Shown piece after piece: positions 44,360 to 63,975 of a stretch of DNA of 64,000 nt. Within the stretch, counting starts at the first letter, position 1, and each line of letters starts with the position of its first letter. The stretch is from Polyangiales bacterium. Its GTDB lineage: Bacteria > Myxococcota_A > Polyangia > Polyangiales > Ga0077539. A program made the position numbers and the translations under genes. The notes under the pieces are model-generated. The model did no database searches, was not told the origin of the DNA, and worked only from the letters and a program-made list of their open reading frames with translations. Location: contig JAXLYI010000006.1 of the NCBI GenBank assembly GCA_046351555.1, forward strand, positions 314,284 to 378,283. Direction: 5' to 3'.

Positions 44360-47300
44360 ATGCAGAAGTATGTTTTGATCGCCGCGGCGGCGATGCTCGT
44401 CGCGTGCAATGACGAGCGACCCACAGCCGGTGACGCGGCCGCCGACGCGGCTGCCGACGTGACCGTTGACGTGGCCGTTGACGCGGCCGCCGACGTCGCC
44501 GCTGACTCGCTGGCCTCCCCCGACGTCGCGGCGGACCAGCCCCCTCCGACGGACGCTGGCGACGCCTCGCCCGACGCGCCATCCGAAGACGTTCCCGTCC
44601 CACCCGACGCGGCGCCTGATGCGCCCGGAGACGTCGCGGCGCCCGATGCGCCCGGAGACGTCGCGGCGCCCGACGCTGCGTCGACGGACGGCATGACGGT
44701 CGACGCGGCGACGGACGCGCCCGACGACCTCGGCGCCCGCTGCACGCCCGGCACCTCCCGCCCGTGCTACGGCGGGGCCGCGGGGACGGCGGGCGTCGGG
44801 CGGTGCCGCGCGGGGACGCAGTACTGCAACGTGTCGGGCGGCTACGACGCCTGCCTCGGCGAGCAGCTCCCCGCGGCGGCGGAGACCTGCGGCGACATGG
44901 TCGACGACGACTGCAACGGCATGGCCGACGACGGCTGCGGCGAGTGCTCCCCCGGCGCCACGCGGAGCTGCTACGCCGGCCCCGCCGGCACCGCGGGGCG
45001 AGGCCGATGCCGCGCCGGGACGCAGACCTGCGGCGCCGACCGGCGCTGGGGCGCCTCCTGCGCGGGCGAGGTCGTCCCCGGCGCCGAGACCTGCAACAAC
45101 CAGGACGACGACTGCAACGGCACGGCCGACGACGGCGCCGCGACCGCCGGCTGCGCCCTCGCCAACGCCACCGCGACGTGCCGCGCGGGGGCCTGCGCCG
45201 TGGCCGCGTGCGCGACGGGCTTCGGCGACTGCGACGCGGCGGCGGCCAACGGCTGCGAGACGGCGCTCGCCACCGCGACCGATCACTGCGGCGCGTGCGG
45301 CAGCGCGTGCGCCGCGGGGCAGACCTGCGCGGCCGGGCGCTGCGCCGGCGGCTCGGCGGACGACCTCGCGGCGGGCGGGGCCAACGCCTGCGCGATCCTC
45401 CCGGGCGGGCGCGTGGCGTGCTGGGGCGCCGACCAGTACGGGCAGCTCGGCAACGGGGCCACCGGCCACCGCGCGGCGCCCGTGTTCGTCTCGGGCCTCA
45501 ACGACGCGACGGACGTCGAGGCCGGCGCCCGCGCGCAGCACGTCTGCGCCATCCGCGCGGGCGGCGCGGTGGTGTGCTGGGGCGAGAACGGCAACTACCA
45601 CCTCGGCGACGGCACCAACGTGAGGCGCCTGACGCCGGTCGCGGTCGCCGGGCTCACCGACGCCGTCCAGCTCGCGCTGGGGTCGCAGCACACCTGCGCG
45701 CTCCGTCGCACCGGCCGCGTCGTGTGCTGGGGCTACAACGCGACCGGCCAGCTCGGCGACGGCACCACCTCGACGCGGCCCGTGCCGAGCGAGGTGCCGG
45801 GCATCGCCGACGCGACCCAGGTGGTCGCGGGGGCCGACCACACGTGCGCGCTGCGGGCGACCGGCGCGGTGCTCTGCTGGGGCCTCAACGCCAACGGGCA
45901 GCTCGGCGACGGGAGCCTCACGACGCGGCTGCTCCCCGTGACGGCCGGCGTGACGGGCGCCACCGCGCTCGCGGCCGGCGGCGCCCACACCTGCGTGATC
46001 CGGGGCGGCGGGGTGGTCACCTGCTGGGGGGTCAACAGCTCCGGGCAGCTCGGCGACGGCCTGCGGGCGGCCGGCCGTGCGGCGGCGGCGGACGTCGTCG
46101 GGGTCACCGACGCGGCCGAGCTCGCGCTCGGCTTCACCCACTCCTGCGCGAGGCGGCGGGGCGGGGCGGTCTCCTGCTGGGGGTACAACGGGGCCGGCGC
46201 GCTCGGCGACGGGACCTCCACCGACCGCCTGACGCCGGTGCCGGTCGCGGGGCTCGCGGACGCCGCGCGGCTCGTCGCGGGCGGCGGCTTCACCTGCGCG
46301 CGGCGCACCTCCGGGGCGGTGGCGTGCTGGGGCGACAACACCGTCGGCCAGCTCGGCGACGGGCGGCTGAACAACCGCCCGCTCGCCAACCGGGACATCC
46401 AGGGCATCCCCGGCCCGCTCCCCTGCACGGGCGCCGGCTGCGCGCTCCCGATCTCCGCGGGCTCGGACGCCACCTGCGCGGTCCGGCCCGGCGGGGCCGT
46501 CTCCTGCTGGGGCGGCAACGGGGTGGGGCAGCTCGCCGAAGCCGACGCCGCGCCCCGCTCCGCGCCCTACCCGGTGACCCTCCCCGCGGCCGCGACCCAC
46601 GTCGCGCTCGGCGGGGGCCACGCCTGCGCGCGACTCGCGACGGGCGCGGTCGCCTGCTGGGGCGCCAACACCTCCGGCGAGCTCGGCGTGGCGTCGCCCG
46701 CGAGCAGCGCGACGGCGGTCGTCGTCGCCGGGCTCGCGGACGTCGTGGAGGTCGTGAGCGGCGCCTACCACACCTGCGCCCGTGTGACGGACGGGCGGGT
46801 GCTCTGCTGGGGCCAGAACTCCCTCAACCAGCTCGGCGAGGGGAGCACCGGCAACCGCTCCATTCCGGCGGCGGTCGGCGGCGGCGCCTCGCCCGTCGCC
46901 GATGCGTCCGCGGTCGCGGCGGGCAGCTATTCGACCTGCGCGATCCGCGCGGGCGGCGCGCTGTGGTGCTGGGGGTACAACCGCGACGGGCAGCTCGGCG
47001 ACGGCACCACGACGGCGCGGTCGCTGCCGGTGCAGGTGCGCGCGCCGGACGGGATGGTGGGCGCGTTCACCGGGGTCGAGCAGGTCGCCGTGGGCATCTC
47101 GTTCGCCTGCGCGCTGCGCGGCGGGGCGGTGTCGTGCTGGGGCGACAACTCCGCGGGCCAGCTCGGCGACGGGACCACCACGACGCGCGCCACCGCGGTC
47201 ACCGTGCCGGGCCTCCGCGACGCGGTGGAGATTCGCGCGGGGGCTGGCCACGTCTGCGCCCGCCGCGCGACCGGCGCCCTGGTCTGCTGGGGGCGCAACG

Positions 47301-47539
47301 ACCTCGGGCAGCTCGGCGCGGGCACGATGATCAACGCCCGCGCGCCGACCGCCGTCGTCGGCATCACCGACGCGGTCGGGCTCGCGCTCGGCGACCAGCA
47401 CACCTGCGCGCGGCTCGCGAGCGGGGCGGTGACGTGCTGGGGCTACCGCACGGGCGGCAGGATCGGCGACGGGCTGGTCGAGGACGGCATGACGGTGTCC
47501 GTCACGGCCCCGGCGGGCGCGATCTTCAGCCTGCCGTGA
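44360..47539 (+). CDS. Large lipoprotein with an Asp/Ala/Pro-rich region, then Cys-rich myxobacterial metal-binding-like repeats, then a multi-blade RCC1 (regulator of chromosome condensation) repeat beta-propeller.
   Basis: The lipobox is AAMLVACN. Cys-rich repeats include CYGGAAGTAGVGRCRAGTQYC and GFGDCDAAAANGCE. At least 12 RCC1-like blades follow (V.CWG.N..GQLGDG...R..P). Confidence 0.85.
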   Translation: MQKYVLIAAAAMLVACNDERPTAGDAAADAAADVTVDVAVDAAADVAADSLASPDVAADQPPPTDAGDASPDAPSEDVPVPPDAAPDAPGDVAAPDAPGDVAAPDAASTDGMTVDAATDAPDDLGARCTPGTSRPCYGGAAGTAGVGRCRAGTQYCNVSGGYDACLGEQLPAAAETCGDMVDDDCNGMADDGCGECSPGATRSCYAGPAGTAGRGRCRAGTQTCGADRRWGASCAGEVVPGAETCNNQDDDCNGTADDGAATAGCALANATATCRAGACAVAACATGFGDCDAAAANGCETALATATDHCGACGSACAAGQTCAAGRCAGGSADDLAAGGANACAILPGGRVACWGADQYGQLGNGATGHRAAPVFVSGLNDATDVEAGARAQHVCAIRAGGAVVCWGENGNYHLGDGTNVRRLTPVAVAGLTDAVQLALGSQHTCALRRTGRVVCWGYNATGQLGDGTTSTRPVPSEVPGIADATQVVAGADHTCALRATGAVLCWGLNANGQLGDGSLTTRLLPVTAGVTGATALAAGGAHTCVIRGGGVVTCWGVNSSGQLGDGLRAAGRAAAADVVGVTDAAELALGFTHSCARRRGGAVSCWGYNGAGALGDGTSTDRLTPVPVAGLADAARLVAGGGFTCARRTSGAVACWGDNTVGQLGDGRLNNRPLANRDIQGIPGPLPCTGAGCALPISAGSDATCAVRPGGAVSCWGGNGVGQLAEADAAPRSAPYPVTLPAAATHVALGGGHACARLATGAVACWGANTSGELGVASPASSATAVVVAGLADVVEVVSGAYHTCARVTDGRVLCWGQNSLNQLGEGSTGNRSIPAAVGGGASPVADASAVAAGSYSTCAIRAGGALWCWGYNRDGQLGDGTTTARSLPVQVRAPDGMVGAFTGVEQVAVGISFACALRGGAVSCWGDNSAGQLGDGTTTTRATAVTVPGLRDAVEIRAGAGHVCARRATGALVCWGRNDLGQLGAGTMINARAPTAVVGITDAVGLALGDQHTCARLASGAVTCWGYRTGGRIGDGLVEDGMTVSVTAPAGAIFSLP
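44618..44671 (+). repeat. Perfect 27-nt direct tandem duplication inside the RCC1 lipoprotein gene, encoding DAPGDVAAP twice.
   Basis: gatgcgcccggagacgtcgcggcgccc occurs twice in succession. Confidence 0.8.
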
Positions 47540-47816
47540 CCTCCGGCGGACGTCGCCGCGCAGGTGCTCGCCTCGCTCGACGCGCGCCCGCGCTGACGCC
47601 CGTCGCGCCACCCACCGCCGCCGCAACCCACCGTCGGCGCCTCCGCGCGGCATCCGCTGCCACCGCGAGGCCCCCTCCCAGCCTCCGCGCGGCATCTGTT
47701 GCCGCCCCGCCGCCCCTGCGCCCCCCGCTGCCCGCCATCTGCTCCCGCGTGCGGGCACCGGACGCGCCTCCGTCCGGCATCCGTTCGCGCGCCTCACACT
47801 CCGGCGCGCCCCGCCG

Positions 47817-48665
47817 TTGTTCGCGGTGATGCGTTCATCCTCTGCCAAGGCGAAGGCCGCCGCGCGCTTCGTCCTCCCGCCGCAGCTCCTCGGGGCCGCG
47901 GCGCTCGCTGCGTTCCGCGAGGAGGCCCAGAGCCTCGCGGACGATCAGGTCGTGGGGTTCAACGTCGACCCCGCGGTCATGATGGCCAACCTGCGCACCG
48001 GCGTCGCGTCGGTGCACCCGCGCCTCGGCGAGCTCGTCGAGGCGCGGCCCCGCACGAAGGTGCCGTGGATCCTCTCCATCGCCAACCTCGGCCACGCGAT
48101 CGAGTACGCGGTGGCCAACTGCAACACCGCCCCCGCGGTGTCGCGCGCCGAGCTCGACGCGAAGTACGCCGAGCTCCAGCGCTACCGGGAGCCCGCGCTC
48201 CACTTCGCCCGCGGCCTCGCGTCCGACCTCTTCGCGAAGCTCCCCGCGCAGGAGGTGAGCGCCATCGAGGCGGGCAAGGGGTACTACGACCACGGGCAGG
48301 ACGGCGTGTCGCTCGCGTCGCTCTTCCGCCGCCACGCGGACGAGATCGCGGGGATGCACCCGTTCACGCCCGCGCAGCTCTCCACCATGGAGCACCTCGG
48401 CGCCGAGGTGGCCGCGTCGGTCACGCCCGGCGGCGCGCGCCCGAAGGACCGCGTCGCCGTCGGCGTCTCGCCCGCGCTGCGCGACCGGCTCTGGACGCTG
48501 CTCCGCCAGCGCCACGCCGAGCTGCGCAAGTGCGGCGTCGAGCTCTTCGGCGAGGACGAGGTCGACGAGAAGGTGCCGCGCCTCAACCGCCGCGTGCAGG
48601 TCGTCAGCGCCCCGCAGAACGACAACGGCGGCGGCGAAGAGCCCGCGCCCGCCCCCGACGCCTGA
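47817..48665 (+). CDS. Hypothetical protein (282 aa, TTG start in the track), directly upstream of the STAND NTPase gene.
   Basis: GC3 is high and the protein is helical and non-repetitive. No family was recognised. Confidence 0.45.
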   Translation: MFAVMRSSSAKAKAAARFVLPPQLLGAAALAAFREEAQSLADDQVVGFNVDPAVMMANLRTGVASVHPRLGELVEARPRTKVPWILSIANLGHAIEYAVANCNTAPAVSRAELDAKYAELQRYREPALHFARGLASDLFAKLPAQEVSAIEAGKGYYDHGQDGVSLASLFRRHADEIAGMHPFTPAQLSTMEHLGAEVAASVTPGGARPKDRVAVGVSPALRDRLWTLLRQRHAELRKCGVELFGEDEVDEKVPRLNRRVQVVSAPQNDNGGGEEPAPAPDA

Positions 48666-48701
48666 GCGTCGCCCGCCCCTCTCTGCCGCATCGACGCCCG
48701 C

Positions 48702-51700
48702 GTGGAGACCGTTGCGCTCCGCGCGGGATTGCGTACCGTGCGGCCGATGGAGATCGGGTTCTCGACGCTCGACCGCCGCCGCCTCGAAGACCTGAAAGAT
48801 ACGGACTTCGAACGCTTCTGTGAGGAGCTCGTCCGCTTCGAGGCGCGCGAGCGCCACGTCGACGCGGCCGTCCGCGGGCCGCTGAGGTCCGGCGAGGTCG
48901 ACGGCGGCAAGGACCTCCTCCTCGTCGTTCAATCCCCGCCGCGCCGGAGTCGTGCTCAGTTTCCAGAGGCGCTGACCGAGGACGGATTGAGCGAGACCTT
49001 CTTCTCGTGCAAGGCCGGCGCGGACTGGCAGGCCGATGTGAAGGACGACGCCGCGCGCAAGGGCGGCATGGCCCGCGTGCTGGCGCGCGGGGGCCGCTTC
49101 ACCCTGCTCGTCAACCGGCCCGTGGACGTCGAGCGCCTCACGGAGAGCGCCCCGAAGGCGTCGAAGGCACGCGCGAGGAAGAGCTTCGTCCGGCAGGTCG
49201 CGGAGCTCGCTTCGAAGGCCATGGCGGGCGCGCGGAAGAAGCCGCCGAGCGTGGAGGAGATCGAGGCCCGGATCACGATCTACGACGCGAACGCGATCGT
49301 CGCCTTCCTGCGCGTCCACCGCCCGTCCCTCGGCGCGGAGTTCAAGCGCGCCCTCGGGATCGTCGAGCCACCCGGCGTCGTCTCCGTGGAGCGTTGGCGC
49401 CTGGAGCAGAAGCGCGGCCCGCGGAAGCTGCCGGACTTCGCGCGCGACGCGGCGCGCGAGCGGGCCATCGCGGAACTCCTGGCCATGTTCGAAGGTGGGG
49501 AGTCGCGCGCGGTGTGGATCGACGGCGCGCCGGGCATCGGCAAGACGCGGCTCGTCCTCGAGGCGCTCACGCGCGCCCGCGATCACCAGCCGCGCGTCTG
49601 CGTCGCGCCGCGCGAGCCCGTCGGCGCGGAGGCCCTCGAACGCTACGACCTCGTCGCGAAGATGCCCGAGGTGATCCTCGTCATCGACGAGTGCCCCGCG
49701 AGCCGGGTCCATCTTCTCTACAGCAAGTTCGCCGCCGCGGTGGACGACTGCGGCGAGGCCGCGCGGCGCGCGTGCCTGGTGCTCATCGGCCCGCCCGGCG
49801 AAGCCATCGCGCCCTTGGGCCTCCGCCGGATGCCGCTGGAGCCGCTCGGCGACGACGCACTCCGTCAGGTCATCGAACGGGAGTACCGCGGGGACGCCGC
49901 CCAGGTCGACGCCGTGCTCCGGCTCGCGGAAGGCTTCCCCTGGTACGCGGTGTTGTTGGCGAGGGAGTTCGGCCGCAGCAACGTCTCGCCGACGGACGGG
50001 GCCGACACGAGCTTCGCGGCGAAGGTCGCCATCGCCCCGCTGCCCACCACCGGCTCGGGGGACGACGAGTGGAGGCGGGAGGTGCTGGCAAGGGCGCGGG
50101 CCCTGCTCGCGGTCATCCTGCTGGAACGGCGGCCCTGGCCGTCTCGCGACGAAGCCGCACGGACCGCGCTCTTCCGCGCGGTCGGCCTCCCCTCCTGGGA
50201 AGACCTGAACGACCGGATCCGGGCCTGCGTCGAGCGCGGCTTGATCCGCCAGAGCGAGGACACGGAGTTCCGCTATGTGACGCCGGCGGTGCTGGCGCGC
50301 GAGGTGCTGATCCTCCTGCTCACGCCGCCCGGAGGTGGCGGCCCCAGCCTGTGCCGCCACGCGCCGGAGCTCGCGGACGGCCTCCACGAGCGCCTCTCGG
50401 AGTTCGGCGTCCCGGACGGCCTGCAGCGCGAGCTCGCGCGGGAGACGCTCGACGACTGGCGAAACGCGCGCACGCTCCCCGAGCTCGCCCGCCGCGCCAG
50501 CCGGCGGTCTCTCCTGTTCGTCGCGACGCGGTGCCCCCTGGAGGCCGCGACGTATCTGCGCGAGGTCACCGCACGTCCCTTCCCGCAGGAAGAAGCCCCC
50601 CGGGCCATCGCCGCCGTGGCGCCGGCCCTCGGCCACCTCCTCTCGCGGCGCGGGTGCTTCGCCGAAGCGGAGGGGGCTCTCTTCCCGCTCGTCGTCGCGG
50701 AGAGGGGAGAGTCGATGCGGCCCGCGACGGACGTCTGGGCGAGGTCCCTCATGCCGGCGTGGGGGGAGACCTACGCGACGCATCGAGAGCGTGCGGACAC
50801 GCTCGCCCGACGGGTGCGGTCGGCCGGGGGTGAAGACCGCCTCGCCGCGCTCGCGGCGCTCGACGCCGTCGCCTCGTCAAACTGGTGGACCGTTCGGACG
50901 CCCCTCGACGGCGAATGGCCGAGGCCCGATCCGACGGAGGTGGTGCGCGCGACCGCCTTCGCGTGGCACCTGCTGGCCGAGCGAACCGCCGACCCGGACC
51001 CCTCCGTCGCTCATCGGGCGCAGGCGATCGTCTGCCGTCACGTGCGCAACGCCGTTCGCGCCGGGGTGGCGCTCGACGCGGTGGGCGAGCTCTCTCGCCG
51101 CGCGAATGGGTGGCCCGACGCGAGTCGCTCCGATCTCCGCGCCGCGCTCGACTTGATCGACCGATACGATGGCGCCTTCGTGGCGTCCGCGCCGGGCCTC
51201 GCGGAGCGCCTCGCCGCGCTGCGGGCGGCCCTGGAGCCTCGCACCTGGCGGGACCGTCTCTTCGACCGCGTCGCCCACTGGCATCCCGGCGCTTCGAAGG
51301 CGAGCGACGAGCGAGACGCGGACCGCGCGCTGGCGCGTGAAGGGATCGCGAACGGCGACCTCGACCGATCACTCGACTGGCTCGACGGGCCCGACGCGCG
51401 CCGCGCGAACGTGTTCATGCGCGGCGCGGGGGAGGTCGACGAGGCGCGCGCTCTGCTCCCGCACCTGCTCCAGCGGGTCCGCTCGGGTGCTTCGAAGAAC
51501 CCCCTCCTCCTCCCCCACTACCTCGGGGGCATGGCGGACGGCGGCGCGGGCGATGAGGTGATCTCGCTCCTCCGGTCGTGGAGGGGCGAGCCGGCGCTCG
51601 CTCGCACGACCTTCATGACGACATGGCTGCTGGGCGCCTCCGAGGAGGGCGTGGCGTGGATCCTCGAAGACCTTCGCGCAGGCGACCTGTGGCCTTCCGA

Positions 51701-52520
51701 CCTGCACCTGCTCGAATCCGGCCCGTGGGACCGGGACGTGTCGTGGCGGGCCGTCGAACCCCTGGTGACCGAGCTGCTCGGCGCCGAGGCGGCGCACGCG
51801 ACGCAGCTCGCGGCCTCCCTGCTCAACCGCCGCCTGCGGCGCGACCCCGACCTCGCGGACGCGATCGCACCGCAGCTCGCGCGCGCGCTGGCTCGGCTGA
51901 TGGCGGGCGCGGCCTCCGGCGAAGCGCTCGCGGCGCACGAATGCGAGGTCGGGCTCGATCAACTCCTGGCGCTCGGACGGCGCGGCGAGGTGCTGGAGCT
52001 GGCGTCGGAAGCGCTCCGGCGAGGACCGGAGTCCGCGGGCTTCGAGCACGCCTGGAAGGCGCTTCTCCAGATCGCGCAAGACGACGCCGTCGCGGTCTGG
52101 CAGCGCGTCGCTCCCGTGCTCGACGGGCCTCGCTCGGATGAGCTCCGTTGGGACTGGCGCTGGCAGGCCCTCGGCAGGCTCCTGCCCGCCGACGAGGTCC
52201 TCTCGTGGATCGGGGATGACTTCTGGCGCGCCCGCGTCGCGGGGAGCTTCGCCGTCGTCACGGAGGCCCCCCTGCCTCACCTCACGCGCTCGCTGCTCAT
52301 CCGATTCGGGGCGCGCGGCGACGTGGCGTCGATCCTCTACACCCGCGTCCTGTCCGCGCCTCCCCAGGCGGAGAGCCATGCGTCCTTTCTCCGCGAGCAG
52401 GTGCAACGGGCGCACGCCTGGGCCGCGGACGAGGACCCCGAGGTGGCGACCTGGGCGCGCCGATGCGAAGCCGGCCTACGGGAGAGCGCGGAGCGGTCGC
52501 TGCGGGCGGACGTCGGCTGA
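48702..52520 (+). CDS. STAND-type P-loop NTPase (1272 aa). It has an N-terminal nuclease-like (Mrr/PD-(D/E)xK-like, tentative) module and C-terminal helical (HEAT/TPR-like) repeats, making it an Avs-like antiviral STAND candidate.
   Basis: The Walker A is VWIDGAPGIGKTRLVLEAL. The Walker B is EVILVIDECP, followed by an arm/helical region. The N-terminus reads DFERFCEELVRFEARERHVDAAVRGPLRSGEVDGGKDLLLVVQ. A long alpha-helical C-terminal half is rich in Leu, Ala and Arg. Confidence 0.7.
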   Translation: METVALRAGLRTVRPMEIGFSTLDRRRLEDLKDTDFERFCEELVRFEARERHVDAAVRGPLRSGEVDGGKDLLLVVQSPPRRSRAQFPEALTEDGLSETFFSCKAGADWQADVKDDAARKGGMARVLARGGRFTLLVNRPVDVERLTESAPKASKARARKSFVRQVAELASKAMAGARKKPPSVEEIEARITIYDANAIVAFLRVHRPSLGAEFKRALGIVEPPGVVSVERWRLEQKRGPRKLPDFARDAARERAIAELLAMFEGGESRAVWIDGAPGIGKTRLVLEALTRARDHQPRVCVAPREPVGAEALERYDLVAKMPEVILVIDECPASRVHLLYSKFAAAVDDCGEAARRACLVLIGPPGEAIAPLGLRRMPLEPLGDDALRQVIEREYRGDAAQVDAVLRLAEGFPWYAVLLAREFGRSNVSPTDGADTSFAAKVAIAPLPTTGSGDDEWRREVLARARALLAVILLERRPWPSRDEAARTALFRAVGLPSWEDLNDRIRACVERGLIRQSEDTEFRYVTPAVLAREVLILLLTPPGGGGPSLCRHAPELADGLHERLSEFGVPDGLQRELARETLDDWRNARTLPELARRASRRSLLFVATRCPLEAATYLREVTARPFPQEEAPRAIAAVAPALGHLLSRRGCFAEAEGALFPLVVAERGESMRPATDVWARSLMPAWGETYATHRERADTLARRVRSAGGEDRLAALAALDAVASSNWWTVRTPLDGEWPRPDPTEVVRATAFAWHLLAERTADPDPSVAHRAQAIVCRHVRNAVRAGVALDAVGELSRRANGWPDASRSDLRAALDLIDRYDGAFVASAPGLAERLAALRAALEPRTWRDRLFDRVAHWHPGASKASDERDADRALAREGIANGDLDRSLDWLDGPDARRANVFMRGAGEVDEARALLPHLLQRVRSGASKNPLLLPHYLGGMADGGAGDEVISLLRSWRGEPALARTTFMTTWLLGASEEGVAWILEDLRAGDLWPSDLHLLESGPWDRDVSWRAVEPLVTELLGAEAAHATQLAASLLNRRLRRDPDLADAIAPQLARALARLMAGAASGEALAAHECEVGLDQLLALGRRGEVLELASEALRRGPESAGFEHAWKALLQIAQDDAVAVWQRVAPVLDGPRSDELRWDWRWQALGRLLPADEVLSWIGDDFWRARVAGSFAVVTEAPLPHLTRSLLIRFGARGDVASILYTRVLSAPPQAESHASFLREQVQRAHAWAADEDPEVATWARRCEAGLRESAERSLRADVG

Positions 52521-52537: not shown

Positions 52538-54085
52538 TCACCCCCGCCGCGCCGCGCACAGCAGCCCGCGCTGCGCGATCTGCCGCGCGGCCTCCTCACG
52601 CACGCCCCAGTGCCGCGCGGTGAGCGCGAGCCGCAGCATCACCGCCCCCGCCTCGTCGCCGAGCGCCCGCGCGAGGCCCGCCACCAGCGCCTCCGCGGTG
52701 TACCCCTCGCCGTCGGACGCCTCGATCGCCGCCGCCACCGCCGCGCGGTGCGCCCGCATCACCTCCGGCGCCCACGCGAGCCCCGCGAACGTCTCGCAGC
52801 GCGCGGCCCCGGTCGCCTCGCGCGCCGCCGCGACGAGCGCGTCGACCGTCGCCGCGTCCCGCCGATGCACGAGGCACCACCGCGCCGTAGCGCCCACCGC
52901 GCCGCCCGCGGCCGCGAACGCGCGCAGCGCCGCCACGTGGTGGTCGCCGCCGCGCAGCCGGTCGATCGCGCCGAGGACGTTGTTCCGCACGCCCTCGTCG
53001 CCGACGTCGAACGCGAAGTCGAGCGCCGGCAGGTCGGCCGCCGTCGCGCGCACCAGCAGGGCGCAGGTGAGCTGCACGCGCCGCGCCCGGTCGCCGAGGG
53101 AGGCGAGCCACGCGCGGGCCGACGCGCTGTAGTGCTCGTGCCAGCGCGCGAGGAGCGCTGCCTCGACCTCCAGCGCGAGCGTCGCGCCGCGGACCAGCGA
53201 GGCCGCGAGGGCGGGGCCGTACGCCCACTCACGCAGGTGCCTCAGCGCGCGGGAGTAGCGCGCCCAGAGCGCTGCGTCGCGGGCGAGGCCGGGCGTCCGC
53301 GCGTGCGCGCTCCACCGGAGGACGGCGTTGCGCAGGCGCCGCGCGAAGAGGCCCGGGCCGAGCGCGTCGGCCAGCGCGCCGGTGGGGCCGAGCAGCGCGG
53401 CCTGCGCGCGCTCCCGCACGCCGGGGAGCTCGCGGAGCAGCGGCCAGAGGTCGGGGACGTCGTCGATCGCCTCGACCACGCCGTCGCGGCCCGCGAGCAC
53501 CTCGGCCCGCCAGTGGCGCGCGAGGAGCGCGAGGGCGCGCTCGTCGCGGCCGGCGAGGCGACCGGCGAGCCAGACGTCGCGCTCCTCGGGGGGAACGGGG
53601 GCCTCCGCCGTCCAGCGCGCGATCAGGGCGTCGAGCAGCGGCGACGCGGGCTCGTCGTTGTTGAGGACGACGGTGTGGAGCAACTGGAAGGCGGCCCGGG
53701 GCGCGAGTCCCTCGACCCACGCGAGCGCCTGCTCGACGAGCGCGGGCGCGCGGGCCGCGCAGAGCACCGCGGAGGCGGAGACAGGCGTCGGCGCGTCGGG
53801 GGCGCGGCGGCAGTGGAGGGCGCCCGCGGCCTCGCCGAGCAGCGCGCGGTAGCGGGGGACGGGCACGTCGACGCCGACGCGGACGAGCGCGGCGAGCGCG
53901 GCGGAGCAGAGGCGCCCGTCGACGTCGTCGTCGTGCACAACGGCGAGGAGCTCGTCGGCGAGCGCGGGGATGACGGCGTGGCCGACGAGCCCGAGGGCGG
54001 CGAGGCGGGCGTGGAGTTCGCCCTCGCGGCAGCGGGCGCGGAGGGCGGCGAGGCAGTCGTCGAGGGTGTCGAGCGGTGGGTTCAT
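52538..54085 (-). CDS. HEAT/PBS-lyase-like repeat protein, hypothetical.
   Basis: It is a 515-aa protein of helical Ala/Leu-rich repeats (ALRAFAAAGGAVGATARWCLVHRRDAATVDALVAAA...). The coding-strand assignment rests on GC3 and repeat regularity and is moderately uncertain. Confidence 0.5.
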   Translation of the reverse strand: MNPPLDTLDDCLAALRARCREGELHARLAALGLVGHAVIPALADELLAVVHDDDVDGRLCSAALAALVRVGVDVPVPRYRALLGEAAGALHCRRAPDAPTPVSASAVLCAARAPALVEQALAWVEGLAPRAAFQLLHTVVLNNDEPASPLLDALIARWTAEAPVPPEERDVWLAGRLAGRDERALALLARHWRAEVLAGRDGVVEAIDDVPDLWPLLRELPGVRERAQAALLGPTGALADALGPGLFARRLRNAVLRWSAHARTPGLARDAALWARYSRALRHLREWAYGPALAASLVRGATLALEVEAALLARWHEHYSASARAWLASLGDRARRVQLTCALLVRATAADLPALDFAFDVGDEGVRNNVLGAIDRLRGGDHHVAALRAFAAAGGAVGATARWCLVHRRDAATVDALVAAAREATGAARCETFAGLAWAPEVMRAHRAAVAAAIEASDGEGYTAEALVAGLARALGDEAGAVMLRLALTARHWGVREEAARQIAQRGLLCAARRG

Positions 54086-54158
54086 CGGGGGGCGCGCGGA
54101 AAAGCGCCGTCACCCGGGAGCGCGACCACACCCACCGGCGCGGGTACACTCGCGGGCC

Positions 54159-54668
54159 GTGGGCCTCGCCATCGCCATCCTCGACGTCGACTACCGCGAC
54201 GACCACGCCTTCGCCGCGTGCGTGCTGGCCGACGCCTGGGACGCGCCGGCGCCGCGGCGCGAGCTCGCGGTGCGGGTCGACGGGGTGGCGCCCTACGAGC
54301 CCGGGTCGTTCTACAAGCGCGAGCTGCCGTGCCTGCTGGCGGTGCTGGCGGCGGCGGGTGAGCCTCTGGCGTGCGCGGTGGTCGACGGCTACGTGCGGCT
54401 CGACCGCGACGGGCGCCCGGGGCTCGGCGCGCGGCTCCATGAAGCCCTCGGCGGCGCGACGCCGGTGGTGGGCGTGGCGAAGAAGCGCTTCGGCGACGGC
54501 GCCTTCGCCGAGCGCGTGCTGCGCGGCGAGAGCGCGACGCCGCTGTGGGTCACGGCCGCGGGCATGGGCGACGCAGAGGCCGCCGCCCACGTCCGCGCGA
54601 TGCACGGGCGCTTCCGCGTCCCGACACTGCTGACGCGCGCCGACCGGCTCTGCCGCGACGCGCGGTGA
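54159..54668 (+). CDS. nfi: Endonuclease V (deoxyinosine 3-prime endonuclease), apparently N-terminally short. The start is uncertain.
   Basis: ILDVDY matches the catalytic-Asp region (GADVGF in E. coli). YEPGSFYKRELP corresponds to the FREYP motif region, and PVVGVAKKRF to IGVAKKRL. Only about 169 aa lie downstream of the first plausible GTG, against 223 aa in E. coli. Confidence 0.6.
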   Translation: MGLAIAILDVDYRDDHAFAACVLADAWDAPAPRRELAVRVDGVAPYEPGSFYKRELPCLLAVLAAAGEPLACAVVDGYVRLDRDGRPGLGARLHEALGGATPVVGVAKKRFGDGAFAERVLRGESATPLWVTAAGMGDAEAAAHVRAMHGRFRVPTLLTRADRLCRDAR

Positions 54669-60204: not shown

Positions 60205-60825
60205 ATGTCGATCGTCGTCGGCCCGCCCGGTGCGCTCGTCGCCATCGAGGGCATCGATGGCGCGGGCAAGACCACGCAGTCCCGCCGCCTCGCCGAGGCC
60301 CTCGCAGCCGACGGCTACGAGGTGGTGCGCACCCACGAGCCCACCGACGGCCCGTGGGGGCGGCGCATCCGCGCGTCGGGGGAGACGGGGCGCCTGTCGC
60401 CGCGCGAGGAGTTCGAAGCCTTCCTCGAAGACCGCCGCGAGCACGTGCGCGACCTCCTCGCACCGTCGCTCGAAGCGGGGCGCGTGGTGCTGGTCGACCG
60501 CTACTACTTCTCGTCGATGGCCTACCAGGGCGCGCGCGGGCTCGACCCCGCCGTCATCCGCGCGGAGAACGAGCGCGTCGCCCCGCGGCCCGACCTGCTG
60601 GTGATCCTCGAGATCGAGCCCGCCGCGGGCGTGGCGCGGGTCAACGCGCGCGGCAAGGGCAACCTCTTCGAACGCGAGGACGACCTCCGGCGCGCGGCCG
60701 CGATCTTCGACGCGATCACCGACCCGGCGCCGCTGCGCCTCGACGCGACGCGGCCCGAGGGGGAGCTCACCAAGGAGATCCTCGCGGCGCTGCGCGGGGT
60801 GCTCTCGCACAAGAAGCTCGGGTGA
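60205..60825 (+). CDS. tmk: Thymidylate kinase.
   Basis: The P-loop is IEGIDGAGKTTQ. The DRY-type motif is LVDRYYFSSMAYQGARG. The lid is ARGKGNLFERED. Confidence 0.9.
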   Translation: MSIVVGPPGALVAIEGIDGAGKTTQSRRLAEALAADGYEVVRTHEPTDGPWGRRIRASGETGRLSPREEFEAFLEDRREHVRDLLAPSLEAGRVVLVDRYYFSSMAYQGARGLDPAVIRAENERVAPRPDLLVILEIEPAAGVARVNARGKGNLFEREDDLRRAAAIFDAITDPAPLRLDATRPEGELTKEILAALRGVLSHKKLG

Positions 60826-60837
60826 GCGGTCACCCCG
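60822..60837 (+). terminator. Short GC hairpin (gggtga-gcgg-tcaccc) between the convergent tmk and Toprim-like genes. It is a candidate bidirectional terminator but very close to both stops.
   Basis: Read directly. It is a 6-bp stem with a 4-nt loop and no U-tract. Confidence 0.2.
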
Positions 60838-61426
60838 GGTCTGGCGCCGGCGGTTCGCGGAGCATCGCGACGACCTTGCCGACCAGGTAGCCGAGCGACG
60901 GGACCGCCGCCAGGAGACTGGCCCGTTGCTCCGCAGTCAGCCGCCTCGCGGCGAGCTTGAAGAGGATGTCACGGCTCGCCACGTCCTTGCGCTCGATGGC
61001 CAGCGCGAAGGCCTCCTCGCGCCCCTGGACGGCGCCGAGCGAACGGAGCCCGACGAGGACGCTCTCGGTGTTCTGCTCGATCAGCACCACGCGCAGGAGC
61101 GACGCGGGGTCGCACCCTCGCTTGATCGCCTCGGTCACCCTGACCTTGCACGCGTCGAGCGCGAGCTTCGCCATCGACCGCACCCGGTCGTTGTCGAACA
61201 CCGCGACCACGACGTGGCCCGTGCGCGTCAAGCGTGGAAGCTCCTGGCGGCACGCAGTCCAGACCTTGCTGTTGCCGTTCTTCGGGTACCCGCGGAGGCG
61301 GTCCTTCAGCGCCCAGGGTTCGCAGCCCAGCCGGTCGGCCACGCAGCAGACGACGAGGTCGTGAAGCCCGAACTCCGCCCGCTCCCCCGCGGAGTCTTCA
61401 TAGAGAAGCGTCACCCCCGGGAGCAC
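60830..61426 (-). CDS. Small Toprim-like (DUF4435/OLD-type) putative nuclease partner of the upstream ABC ATPase.
   Basis: The first motif, LLYEDSAGERAEFGLHDLVV, gives the conserved Glu in a VEG-like position. The second, HVVVAVFDNDRVRS, gives the DxD motif. Both are spaced as in Toprim domains. It is 198 aa and its start abuts the ATPase stop. Confidence 0.5.
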   Translation of the reverse strand: MLPGVTLLYEDSAGERAEFGLHDLVVCCVADRLGCEPWALKDRLRGYPKNGNSKVWTACRQELPRLTRTGHVVVAVFDNDRVRSMAKLALDACKVRVTEAIKRGCDPASLLRVVLIEQNTESVLVGLRSLGAVQGREEAFALAIERKDVASRDILFKLAARRLTAEQRASLLAAVPSLGYLVGKVVAMLREPPAPDPG

Positions 61427-63154
61427 CTACGCCTCCGTCCTCGTCATCACCTCGGCCTCGTAGCCTGCGTCGAGGATCCGGCCGAGCCCGTCATAGTCCT
61501 TCAACCAGTCGTCCAGCGCGGCCCGATCGGGGTAGCGCAAACGGGTGGCGCCGTCCTCGTCGAGCTCGCACAGCACGGCGGACGTGGCCGGGTCGCGGAG
61601 CTCGTCGAGCAGCCGTCGCGAGTGCGTCGCGAGGAGCACCGGGCTGCGCTCCGAGATCCGCTGGAAGAAGCCCACCACGCGCGCGAGCAGCCGAGGGTGG
61701 AGGTGCACCTCGGGCTCGTCGAACACCAGCAGCGAGCGCTTCGAGGGCAGCCGGAACATCGCCACGAACGCGAGGTACGCGAGCGTCCCCTCCGACAGCG
61801 CGGCCGCGGGGACCTGCTCGTCGCGGCCCCGGAGCTTCACCCACAGCGCGATCGAGCCGCCCGCCGGGTCGGCGCGGGTGTTGACGGACTCGACGCGGTC
61901 GCCGAGGCCGAGGCGCACGTAGTCCATGGTCTCGCGCCAGTGCTCCTCGCCCACGTCCGAGCGGAGCGCGTGCCAGGCGTTGGCGAGGTTGAGGCCGAGC
62001 CGCTCGACGCTCGAAGCCGACTGGATGAGCGACGACCCGCGCGGGATGGAGGGGCGGCCGTGCGCGCGGCTCACCCAGCCGGGCGTGACCTCGAAGGGGA
62101 CGTGGACCTCGATGTTCTTCAGCGCCGCCGCCATGCGAGAGATCGCGGGGTGCGGCGGGTTCAGGCCGAAGGAGGTGAGCGCGAGGGCGTCCTGGGGGAC
62201 GGTCTGCGATCGCCTGCGTTGTTCGAGCGCATGGGGCGCCCAGGCGCCGGTGGGGTCGCGCTCCAGGAGGACGGCCGAGAGGGGCGGGTCGTCGGGGTAG
62301 CCGAGGGTGAGCCGCTCGTACGAGACCACCGCGCCTCCGCCGGCGGGGGCGAGCCGGAGTTCGTAGTGAAGCGGCGGGCCTGCGCCGTGGACTTCGACGG
62401 CGAGCGCGAGCTCCCGGGCCCCGTGCCGAAGCAGCAGCCGGAGGCCGCCGTGGATGGCGTTGAGCTCGTCGACGAAGGCGGGCGAAGCGACGCGCCGGAG
62501 CAGCTCGCACGCCTCGACGATCGTGCTCTTCCCCACGCCGTTCTCACCGATGAGAACGATGAGCCCGTTCAGCGCCAGATGCGCCTGCGCCACCGTGCGG
62601 GCGCCCCGAACCGTCAGGGCGCGGATCACGTCGGGGCGCGCCGAGGTTTGCACGTCGACGGGCCACAGCGCGCCGTACGTTTCGCGCCACTGCGCGTGGG
62701 CTTCCGCGATCTCGCCGGCGCACTCGAGCCGGACGGCGTGCTCCGCCACCGCGGCGCGCGCGTGGAGCCAGAGGGCGGGGTGCTTCGCGGCGAGCAAGCG
62801 CAAGACGTCGCGCACCCGAGCGCTCGTGCGAGGCGCGCCGCCCAGACTCACAGACGCGGCCATCGCGCCGACCGACTCGACGGAATCCCCACCGGGCGCG
62901 GACGCGATCAAACACGCGACCAGCCGGGCCAGCGACGCCGCCGGCGCAGCAATCGCTCCCTCCTCCGGCGTCAGAGACTCCGCTCCCCCCGCGCCACCTT
63001 CCGCGTGCGCGGACGCCAACGTTCGACTCAACGCTTCGAACGCCTCTTCGATCGTCGGCAGCTCGTTGCGTGCGGTCGTCACGGGCCTCGTGCGGGTGTA
63101 TCGCGCACCGTCGGGCGTGGTCAACGCTCGCGTCTCGATGACCCCTACCGCCAC
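61427..63154 (-). CDS. ABC-type ATPase of the AAA_15/AAA_21 (OLD / AriA / GajA-like) class. The N-terminal extent is uncertain.
   Basis: The Walker A is LIVLIGENGVGKSTIVEA. The Q-loop/signature region is AALSEGTLAYLAFVAMF. The Walker B plus H-loop is LLVFDEPEVHLHP...LLATHS. The start was chosen at the in-frame GTG just downstream of the upstream lipoprotein gene, but the true start may be later (for example MAASVSL). Confidence 0.7.
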   Translation of the reverse strand: MAVGVIETRALTTPDGARYTRTRPVTTARNELPTIEEAFEALSRTLASAHAEGGAGGAESLTPEEGAIAAPAASLARLVACLIASAPGGDSVESVGAMAASVSLGGAPRTSARVRDVLRLLAAKHPALWLHARAAVAEHAVRLECAGEIAEAHAQWRETYGALWPVDVQTSARPDVIRALTVRGARTVAQAHLALNGLIVLIGENGVGKSTIVEACELLRRVASPAFVDELNAIHGGLRLLLRHGARELALAVEVHGAGPPLHYELRLAPAGGGAVVSYERLTLGYPDDPPLSAVLLERDPTGAWAPHALEQRRRSQTVPQDALALTSFGLNPPHPAISRMAAALKNIEVHVPFEVTPGWVSRAHGRPSIPRGSSLIQSASSVERLGLNLANAWHALRSDVGEEHWRETMDYVRLGLGDRVESVNTRADPAGGSIALWVKLRGRDEQVPAAALSEGTLAYLAFVAMFRLPSKRSLLVFDEPEVHLHPRLLARVVGFFQRISERSPVLLATHSRRLLDELRDPATSAVLCELDEDGATRLRYPDRAALDDWLKDYDGLGRILDAGYEAEVMTRTEA

Positions 63155-63975
63155 ACCGCCTGCATTGCGTTGACGTCGCTGCTGCACCCGGCGCGGCCGG
63201 CGCCGCCGCAGAAGGGGCGGTCGCCCCAGGCGCGCTCGCCCGGGTAGCCGAAGGGGCTCAGGTCGTCGACGAAGTCCGCCGCGCCGTGCGACGCGCGCTC
63301 GCCCACGTTGGCCCTCCCCCGCGGCAGCCCCTCGCGCTCGACCGCCGCCTCCACGCGCTCGCCGCGGCCGTCCATCGCCTCGGCGCAGCCCACCGAGGAG
63401 TACGGCGACCCGTGGCCGTCGACCCGCGTGTCGAAGTACGGGTGGTGCTTGCCCGCGCTCAGGAAGATCACCGGGTGGCGCCCGTCGGCGAAGCGGAGCG
63501 CGTGGGTCGGCCAGCCGAAGCCCCAGGCCCACAGGTGACGCAGCGACGCCGCGCCGTCGCGCAGGTCGATGGTGAGCCGGAGGTACTGGTTGTCGCCGGG
63601 GTGGGCGCTGCTGCACACGCCCGACTCGACGTAGCCGCCGTCGTCGGCGAAGAGGTAGGCGTAGCGGAGCTCGACGGAGGCCGCGCCGCACGCGCCGAGC
63701 GGCGTCACCTGGTAGGGCGTCGCGGGCTCGCTCGGACGGCGGGCGTTCTCGCGGCTGTCGAAGACGAAGAGGGGCGCGTACCAGCGGGCCAGGGCGTGCT
63801 CCACCTCGTCGTCGAGGCAGTCGCCATCGCGGTCGCGCGCGCGGTCGTCGGTGAAGGCCTCGCCCGCGAGCGGCATCGGGTCGGCGGCGCCGGGCATGCC
63901 CGCGGCGTCCCAGTCGTCGAAGTCGAGCCCGCACGCCGCCACGAGCGGGACGGAGGCCGCCAGCACCCATCGCAT
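63145..63975 (-). CDS. Hypothetical lipoprotein.
   Basis: The start is placed at MRWVLAASVPLVAACG (lipobox), with a globular Asp/Gly/Trp-containing body. The track ORF starts at 63999 and may extend upstream toward the window edge. Confidence 0.45.
   Translation of the reverse strand: MRWVLAASVPLVAACGLDFDDWDAAGMPGAADPMPLAGEAFTDDRARDRDGDCLDDEVEHALARWYAPLFVFDSRENARRPSEPATPYQVTPLGACGAASVELRYAYLFADDGGYVESGVCSSAHPGDNQYLRLTIDLRDGAASLRHLWAWGFGWPTHALRFADGRHPVIFLSAGKHHPYFDTRVDGHGSPYSSVGCAEAMDGRGERVEAAVEREGLPRGRANVGERASHGAADFVDDLSPFGYPGERAWGDRPFCGGAGRAGCSSDVNAMQAVWR

Follow-up and report, generated by a model that had tools for sequence, protein, structure and literature searches.

Avs8, the name now given to the antiviral system PD-lambda-4, is built around Avs8A, a protein described as joining an Mrr nuclease to a STAND NTPase of the P-loop type and, at the C-terminus, to tandem repeats (10.1101/2025.07.02.662641). 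In Escherichia coli, phage lambda is fully blocked by Avs8A alone, its companion Avs8B being dispensable; the protein binds lambda gpE with a dissociation constant (Kd) of 127 nM and the major capsid protein of Bas21 with one of 14 nM, and after binding capsid protein it degrades double-stranded DNA, for which both Mg2+ and ATP are needed (10.1101/2025.07.02.662641). Assembled capsids fail to activate it, mutants of the nuclease active site lose defence, AlphaFold3 favours a tetramer as the oligomer, and capsid proteins less than 15% mutually identical are tolerated, the fold being read and not the sequence (10.1101/2025.07.02.662641). Sensing of the major capsid protein by Avs8 is likewise described by Lee et al., who report 13 different phage proteins as targets of different Avs families whose TPR-like sensors are similar (10.64898/2026.01.04.697583). 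Here we describe a gene of this kind from a Polyangiales bacterium, located at positions 48747-52520 (+) of a 64,000-nucleotide stretch of contig JAXLYI010000006.1 (positions 314,284 to 378,283, assembly GCA_046351555.1; hereafter the window). With a probability that we place at roughly 0.7, the gene encodes a single-protein antiviral STAND receptor belonging to a deeply divergent branch of Avs8 (PD-lambda-4A).

This assignment was reached through profile methods, which connect the protein and its closest relatives (the window clade) to the PADLOC model of Avs8A, PD-Lambda-4_A (PDLC03991), in two steps. A profile of the window clade retrieved the distant proteins P0014 and P0027-P0035 with E-values from 1e-25 to 1e-100 (P0034 at 1.8e-26), and PD-Lambda-4_A matched all seven of the distant members tested together with two further representatives, scoring 1040 bits over the full length of P0034, 275 bits for P0030, 145 bits for P0014 and 94-123 bits for the others. 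When the alignment of the window clade (A1) was compared by hhalign with that of the PD-Lambda-4_A group (A5), the probability was 100% and the E-value 5.2e-73, with 17% identity over 1184 aligned columns (20-1277 against 9-1257), so that the homology spans the whole protein. Furthermore, two of seven tested window-clade members were matched directly, if weakly, by the sensor region of the PADLOC model (P0004, E 8e-5; P0012, E 1e-5; 18-21 bits). Compared with the reference Avs8A of E. coli ECOR07 (WP_000963924.1), the window protein has a similar length (about 1260 aa), the same order of an Mrr-like PD-(D/E)xK nuclease, a STAND NTPase and an alpha-repeat sensor, and the same DGGxD...xK nuclease signature and GxGKTR Walker A; single-gene operation, with a dispensable Avs8B partner, is a further likeness. 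It differs in its host, a Polyangiales bacterium of about 75% GC as against Gammaproteobacteria or plasmids, and in standing beside no Avs8B-like gene.

As called mechanically, the open reading frame of the gene extends from a GTG codon at 48702 to 52520 (+) and encodes 1272 aa, and it follows another one of 282 aa at 47817-48665 (+), both as given in an earlier annotation made from the letters alone (hereafter the sequence-only reading). The ATG at 48747 (M16, 'MEIGF'; 1257 aa) is nevertheless likely to be the start, because M16 is the first residue both in NCBI's annotation of P0001, an identical protein, and in the two closest homologues, P0002 and P0003; residue numbers throughout refer to the 1272-aa version. 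In NCBI, the same sequence (100% identity) is recorded as MFO0603802.1 (locus tag U0324_11545), from a Polyangiales metagenome-assembled genome. The gene is intact and collinear with 22 homologues of 1189-1310 aa, and its codon usage is of the coding type, with a GC content at third codon positions (GC3) of 0.91; the neighbouring genes lie slightly higher, at 0.96-0.99, in a window of about 75% GC. The motifs on which the sequence-only reading relied were all found in place, namely DGGKD at aa 67-71, the P-loop GAPGIGKT at aa 275-282 and the Walker B VILVIDECP at aa 324-332, and they are not chance matches, since their key residues are invariant in 23 family members at 17-58% identity.

The N-terminal domain (aa 16-215; 48747-49346, +) is a putative PD-(D/E)xK (Mrr-like) nuclease effector, an assignment that draws on the fold, the placement of the motifs and the homology with Avs8A, and not on a curated hidden Markov model (HMM). 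An AlphaFold2 model computed from a 20-sequence alignment reached a predicted local distance difference test score (pLDDT) of 90.3 and a predicted template modelling score (pTM) of 0.87, and displayed a core of the order alpha-beta-beta-beta-alpha-alpha-beta. In this model, D67-G-G-K-D71 (48900-48914, +), with its putative metal-binding aspartates, lies just ahead of beta-2, D71 immediately preceding the strand, and S102-C-K104 (49005-49013, +), the equivalent of the (D/E/Q)xK motif, closes beta-3. All 23 family sequences keep D67, G68, D71 and K104, and at least 90% of them keep E47, while S102 is invariant across the 13 members of the window clade. The signature of the clade reads DGG[KR]D...S-C-K, and that of nine distant members (alignment A3) DGG[IV]D...[FW]Q[FVAIL]K.

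A fold search with this domain recovered AspBHI (figure 7.4), MspJI (7.3), BspD6I (7.3) and LlaBIII (7.0), as well as Can2 (7.0), Hachiman HamA (6.9), AF1548 (6.9), Avs4 (6.6), Cap4 (6.2) and LmuA (5.5), with Cfr10I, NgoMIV and Bse634I at about 5.0-5.5. The domain shares with Mrr, type IV and type ISP nucleases (MspJI, AspBHI, LlaBIII, AF1548) the core fold, D-G-G-x-D-like aspartates before beta-2 and an xK ending beta-3; unlike them, it has a long loop between beta-2 and beta-3 and is fused to a STAND switch instead of a DNA-recognition or helicase module. The sequence-only reading had seen in the D...E.DGGKD pattern a reminder of Mrr/PD-(D/E)xK effectors and had allowed for a non-effector fold as the contrary outcome; both the model and the fold search return the fold of an effector nuclease.

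The STAND NTPase module (aa 250-527; 49449-50282, +) consists of a P-loop domain, a helical domain and a winged-helix domain. Its Walker A, G275-APGIGKT-282 (49524-49547, +), has G275, G278, G280, K281 and R283 invariant in 23 of 23 sequences; in the Walker B, VILVID329-E-C-P (49671-49697, +), D329 is equally invariant and C331 is present in at least 90%; and in the helical domain a GxP motif, G411-F-P413 (49932-49940, +), has G411 invariant in all 23 and P413 invariant within the window clade. The GxP motif is among the signatures of STAND proteins (Leipe, Koonin and Aravind 2004), and the protein shows the Walker A (GxxxxGK[TS]) and Walker B (hhhhD[DE]; aa 324-330) patterns of the STAND superfamily together with its arrangement of nucleotide-binding, helical and winged-helix domains, the helical domain carrying the GxP. 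The remainder of the protein (aa 528-1272; 50283-52517, +) is an alpha-solenoid of the HEAT/ARM/TPR-like type, about 745 aa in length and predicted to be all-helical, in line with the long helical-repeat array of the sequence-only reading, and constitutes the candidate sensor domain. An AlphaFold2 model of aa 225-1272 (pLDDT 88.1, pTM 0.64) comprised a five-stranded P-loop domain, the GxP helical domain, a winged helix with a beta-hairpin, and a solenoid continuous to the C-terminus. The tripartite layout of effector, STAND NTPase and repeat sensor, as originally proposed, is upheld by structure prediction, fold search, full-length homology to PD-Lambda-4_A and the Avs8 literature.

Curated domain models contributed little to this picture. 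The only Pfam match of the large protein was AAA_16, below threshold (26.1 bits against a cut-off of 32.6), with no NB-ARC or NACHT match; NCBIfam returned nothing meaningful, and profile searches against the PDB yielded generic AAA+ P-loops or nothing. Avs4 (EcAvs4, 8DGF) and Avs3 (SeAvs3, 8DGC) gave low TM-scores (0.15), are larger (1540-2028 aa) and carry sensors that recognise portal or terminase, and none of the PADLOC Avs1-5 models matched the window protein. The eukaryotic NLR and apoptosome NB-ARC proteins NRC2, ZAR1, CED-4, Apaf-1 and NOD2 have unrelated effectors and sensors, at identities of 8-12%.

Several findings weigh against placing the gene in Avs8, at the levels of sequence and of genomic context. 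The PADLOC search suggested in the sequence-only reading did not recognise the window protein (nothing at E<=0.1, PD-Lambda-4_A included), and a PDB sequence search gave no match. Also proposed was a comparison with the Mrr_cat family, but Pfam Mrr_cat (PF04471) matched none of 20 N-terminal domains at E<=10; in the same Pfam scan one of the 20 matched DUF4365 (E 0.005). The Gln of the Avs8 QxK site is replaced in the window clade by an invariant Ser, giving S-x-K where the Avs8-like relatives have Q-x-K. This change, together with the silence of the Pfam nuclease models, is what would be expected had the nuclease been made catalytically dead by the Q-to-S exchange and become a DNA-binding or oligomerisation module, which would leave a regulator or scaffold, or else a defence gene in decay. 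We consider this unlikely. Enzymes of the Cfr10I type provide a precedent for a re-arranged active site, and strict conservation of the S-x-K motif, along with that precedent, argues that the site is active.

Divergence also bears on the ligand. Identity to P0034, a bona fide PD-Lambda-4_A protein, is only 14% for the nuclease domain of the window protein, 22% for its NTPase module and 15-17% for each of the three sensor thirds, and as identity is confined to 14-22% in every region, ligand specificity transfers only weakly from one protein to the other. The same architecture and defence logic could thus serve a sensor that reads another phage protein or a non-protein cue, a possibility that we regard as open to serious consideration although not as the probable one. 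The low sensor identity and the 13 phage proteins recognised by the similar TPR-like sensors of Avs families speak in its favour; on the other side, the sensor is collinear with and homologous to that of the Avs8 group over its whole length, and Avs8A itself accepts, through their fold, capsid proteins that have diverged to below 15% mutual identity. A stronger form of this idea, which appears rather doubtful, would make the window clade a separate Avs lineage with a sensor re-modelled for another conserved phage protein and with S-x-K as a Cfr10I-like re-arranged site; if this is true, the clade would count as a new Avs family whose trigger is new as well, and would open a way into the immunity of myxobacteria to myxophages, which has hardly been studied.

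Regarding context, the genes flanking the locus are housekeeping or conserved (RsmE, PrmA, DnaK, argD, argF) and form no recognisable defence island, and the direct neighbours of the STAND homologues mostly lack a PADLOC match. Such surroundings would suit a housekeeping or signalling STAND devoid of an immune role, for instance a MalT-like regulator or a DNA-repair factor, as would the UDG or EndoV-like genes found near three family loci and the fact that the nearest non-family proteins retrieved by the clade profile are adenylate-cyclase STANDs (E 1e-7 to 1e-4). Myxobacteria, moreover, encode many signalling STANDs. We nonetheless judge this explanation very unlikely: the adenylate-cyclase matches are restricted to the vicinity of the P-loop and cover 2-5% of the query, a DNA-binding or output domain was not detected at the C-terminus (Pfam returned no match C-terminal of the NTPase, HTH included), the N-terminal nuclease fold is common to Avs4, Cap4, HamA and Can2, the homology to an experimentally validated defence protein is full-length, and the distribution of the gene is patchy, with absence from related loci and non-conserved neighbourhoods. 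A MalT-type regulator with a C-terminal HTH had been named beforehand as the contrary case, and the NTPase groups instead with Avs8.

Under the Avs8 assignment, analogy with the E. coli protein suggests a defence function, nuclease activity, an oligomeric state and a trigger for the gene in its Polyangiales host. By homology to E. coli Avs8A, the protein would rest as an inactive monomer. Upon phage infection, the C-terminal alpha-solenoid would wrap around a monomeric phage protein, for which an HK97-fold major capsid protein is the most likely candidate, and this binding would free the STAND NTPase, with K281 in its Walker A and D329 in its Walker B, so that ATP could bind and an oligomer, probably a tetramer, could form. 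The N-terminal Mrr-like PD-(D/E)xK domains, with a putative active site formed by E47, D67/D71 and S102-x-K104, would thereby be gathered, and the assembled nuclease domains may then cut double-stranded DNA indiscriminately, aborting the infection. The mechanism as such is already known, and the value of the locus lies in annotation and in comparative work on Avs sensors. Receptors of the Avs8 type would reach far beyond the Gammaproteobacteria and plasmids in which the type was defined, into the high-GC Polyangiales; the standard library PADLOC v2 misses the window form completely, which constitutes a practical annotation gap; and the window clade, with its S-x-K site and about 15-17% sensor identity, offers a natural variant for probing how far capsid recognition at the level of the fold is conserved.

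The size of the family depended on the search method. A word-indexed search returned 14 full-length homologues of 1250-1310 aa, Sorangium proteins among them, and when run with the clade profile gave 29 matches, 22 of them family members, followed by adenylate-cyclase STANDs. The resulting impression of a very rare family was an artefact of the index, overturned by exhaustive HMMER: a profile of the N-terminal domain matched 3057 cluster representatives at E<=1e-3 (2050 at E<=1e-10), and most of the best 150 were 1180-1360 aa long with the same architecture. Among 118 full-length representatives, the HMM of the window clade scored higher in 47 and that of the Avs8-like group in 71, and the motif DG[GASN]xD was present in 111 and Walker A in 116. 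The window clade comprises no fewer than 47 cluster representatives at 50% identity, for the most part from uncultured bacteria and Polyangiales/Sorangium, and a contig scan added at least one further member, from Sorangium cellulosum So ceGT47. On plasmids, tblastn with the window protein found no match. Full-length relatives of the P0034 type (35-45% identity) were found on 44 plasmids or megaplasmids, whose hosts include Rhizobium, Sinorhizobium, Burkholderia, Xanthomonas, Legionella, Bacillus and Enterobacter, and among the 12 plasmid matches listed (H1-H12) all annotated ones are labelled 'hypothetical protein'. The P0034 gene gave no blastn match in E. coli genomes.

Upstream of the STAND gene, the 282-aa protein (p282; 47817-48665, +) starts with TTG and is annotated with 278 aa at NCBI. 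Its presence on the same strand was noted correctly in the sequence-only reading, but the gap is 36 nt to the GTG, not 37, and 81 nt to the ATG at 48747. This proximity, with no predicted terminator between the two genes (a scan for promoters and terminators that is uninformative at 75% GC), is compatible with a two-gene system in which p282 would be the counterpart of Avs8B, whether as regulator, antitoxin or co-sensor. Comparison of loci makes such a partnership hardly credible. No p282 homologue was present at any of five STAND-homologue loci, which represent five different gene neighbourhoods. Among 12 p282 homologues, the loci examined (L006-L010, L026-L028) contained no adjacent family member; for the closest homologue (84% identity, L026) and two others, this applies within short contigs. 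Instead, the p282 gene is conserved in related genomes in synteny with those for MshEN-HEAT, RsmE and PrmA: in L006-L009 it directly abuts a convergent MshEN-HEAT gene, followed by RsmE and PrmA. Furthermore, p282 matched nothing in Pfam, PADLOC (PD-Lambda-4_B included) or NCBIfam, and Avs8B is dispensable even in E. coli. On this synteny we rejected p282 as a STAND partner; it is an unrelated conserved protein and not part of the STAND system.

The same comparison reveals how the STAND gene is distributed. By tblastx, positions 9977-10768 of L006 correspond to 47805-48596 of the window, and L006 from 10896 onwards to the window from 54670, so that L006 has a gap of roughly 70 bp where the window carries about 6 kb. 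L010 has, in order, an RpoB-like gene, an RCC1 gene, the p282 homologue and then homologues of p515 and p232, two proteins encoded downstream of the STAND gene in the window, with no intervening STAND gene. A tblastn fragment in L010 (8104-8619, E 9e-8) was unconfirmed by the family HMM and was treated as a compositional artefact of high GC. The STAND gene is thus clearly absent from two related loci, L006 and L010, and because of this absence and of the varied neighbourhoods of its homologues, it looks like a single-gene accessory element, a character with which its GC3, lower than that of the neighbouring genes, agrees.

Immediately downstream, p515 (515 aa; 52538-54085, -) has no Pfam, PADLOC or NCBIfam match, and p232 (232 aa; 53970-54668, +) is a weakly EndoV-like protein (28.6 bits) whose called open reading frame shares 116 nt with that of p515. 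Homologues of the two occur in L010, where the STAND gene is lacking, and both are missing in L006; they are a second variable unit between the p282 and MshEN-HEAT genes. Neither was retained as a partner of the STAND gene, given their presence in L010 without it and their absence from the loci of its homologues.

At the homologue loci, a few neighbours were recognisable. Directly downstream of the homologue of Sorangium sp. So ce216 lies a 327-aa Ser/Thr kinase (L001 14003-14986) that matches PD-T4-6 over nearly its full length (E 1e-71); this adjacency is weak evidence, and may be a coincidence in a kinase-rich genome. At the P0006 loci (L003/L004), a Transposase_31 gene stands upstream and a protein with AAA-ATPase_like and PDDEXK_9 domains downstream of the homologue, and another STAND protein (547 aa, AAA_16/NPHP3_N) is encoded 2 kb away, surroundings that hint at a mobile or variable region.

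Further along the window, in which no tRNA was found, the region 60205-63970 looks like a second accessory patch of candidate defence genes, 8-11 kb downstream of the STAND gene; the gene content of L006 after PrmA differs from that of the window. The region includes a 206-aa open reading frame (60205-60825, +) matching PDC-M51B (E 1.3e-14), a 198-aa one (60830-61426, -) with no match, and an 847-aa one (61427-63970, -) whose C-terminal part of about 390 aa (448-837) is an ABC-type ATPase of the AAA_21/AAA_15 kind, matching HEC-01A of PADLOC (E 1.7e-33) and also AriA, AbiLi and Old; the true start of the last is probably internal. On the other side of p282, the gene at 40799-44281 (-) encodes a divergent RNA polymerase beta-subunit paralogue of 1160 aa, with Rpb2_6 at E 6e-37 and the other RpoB domains faint. 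It adjoins a gene for a 1059-aa RCC1-repeat (RLD beta-propeller) protein (44360-47539, +), which is probably secreted or lipid-anchored and in which an N-terminal region rich in Ala, Asp and Pro is accompanied by MopE-like motifs rich in Cys; this pair of genes is conserved in L010.

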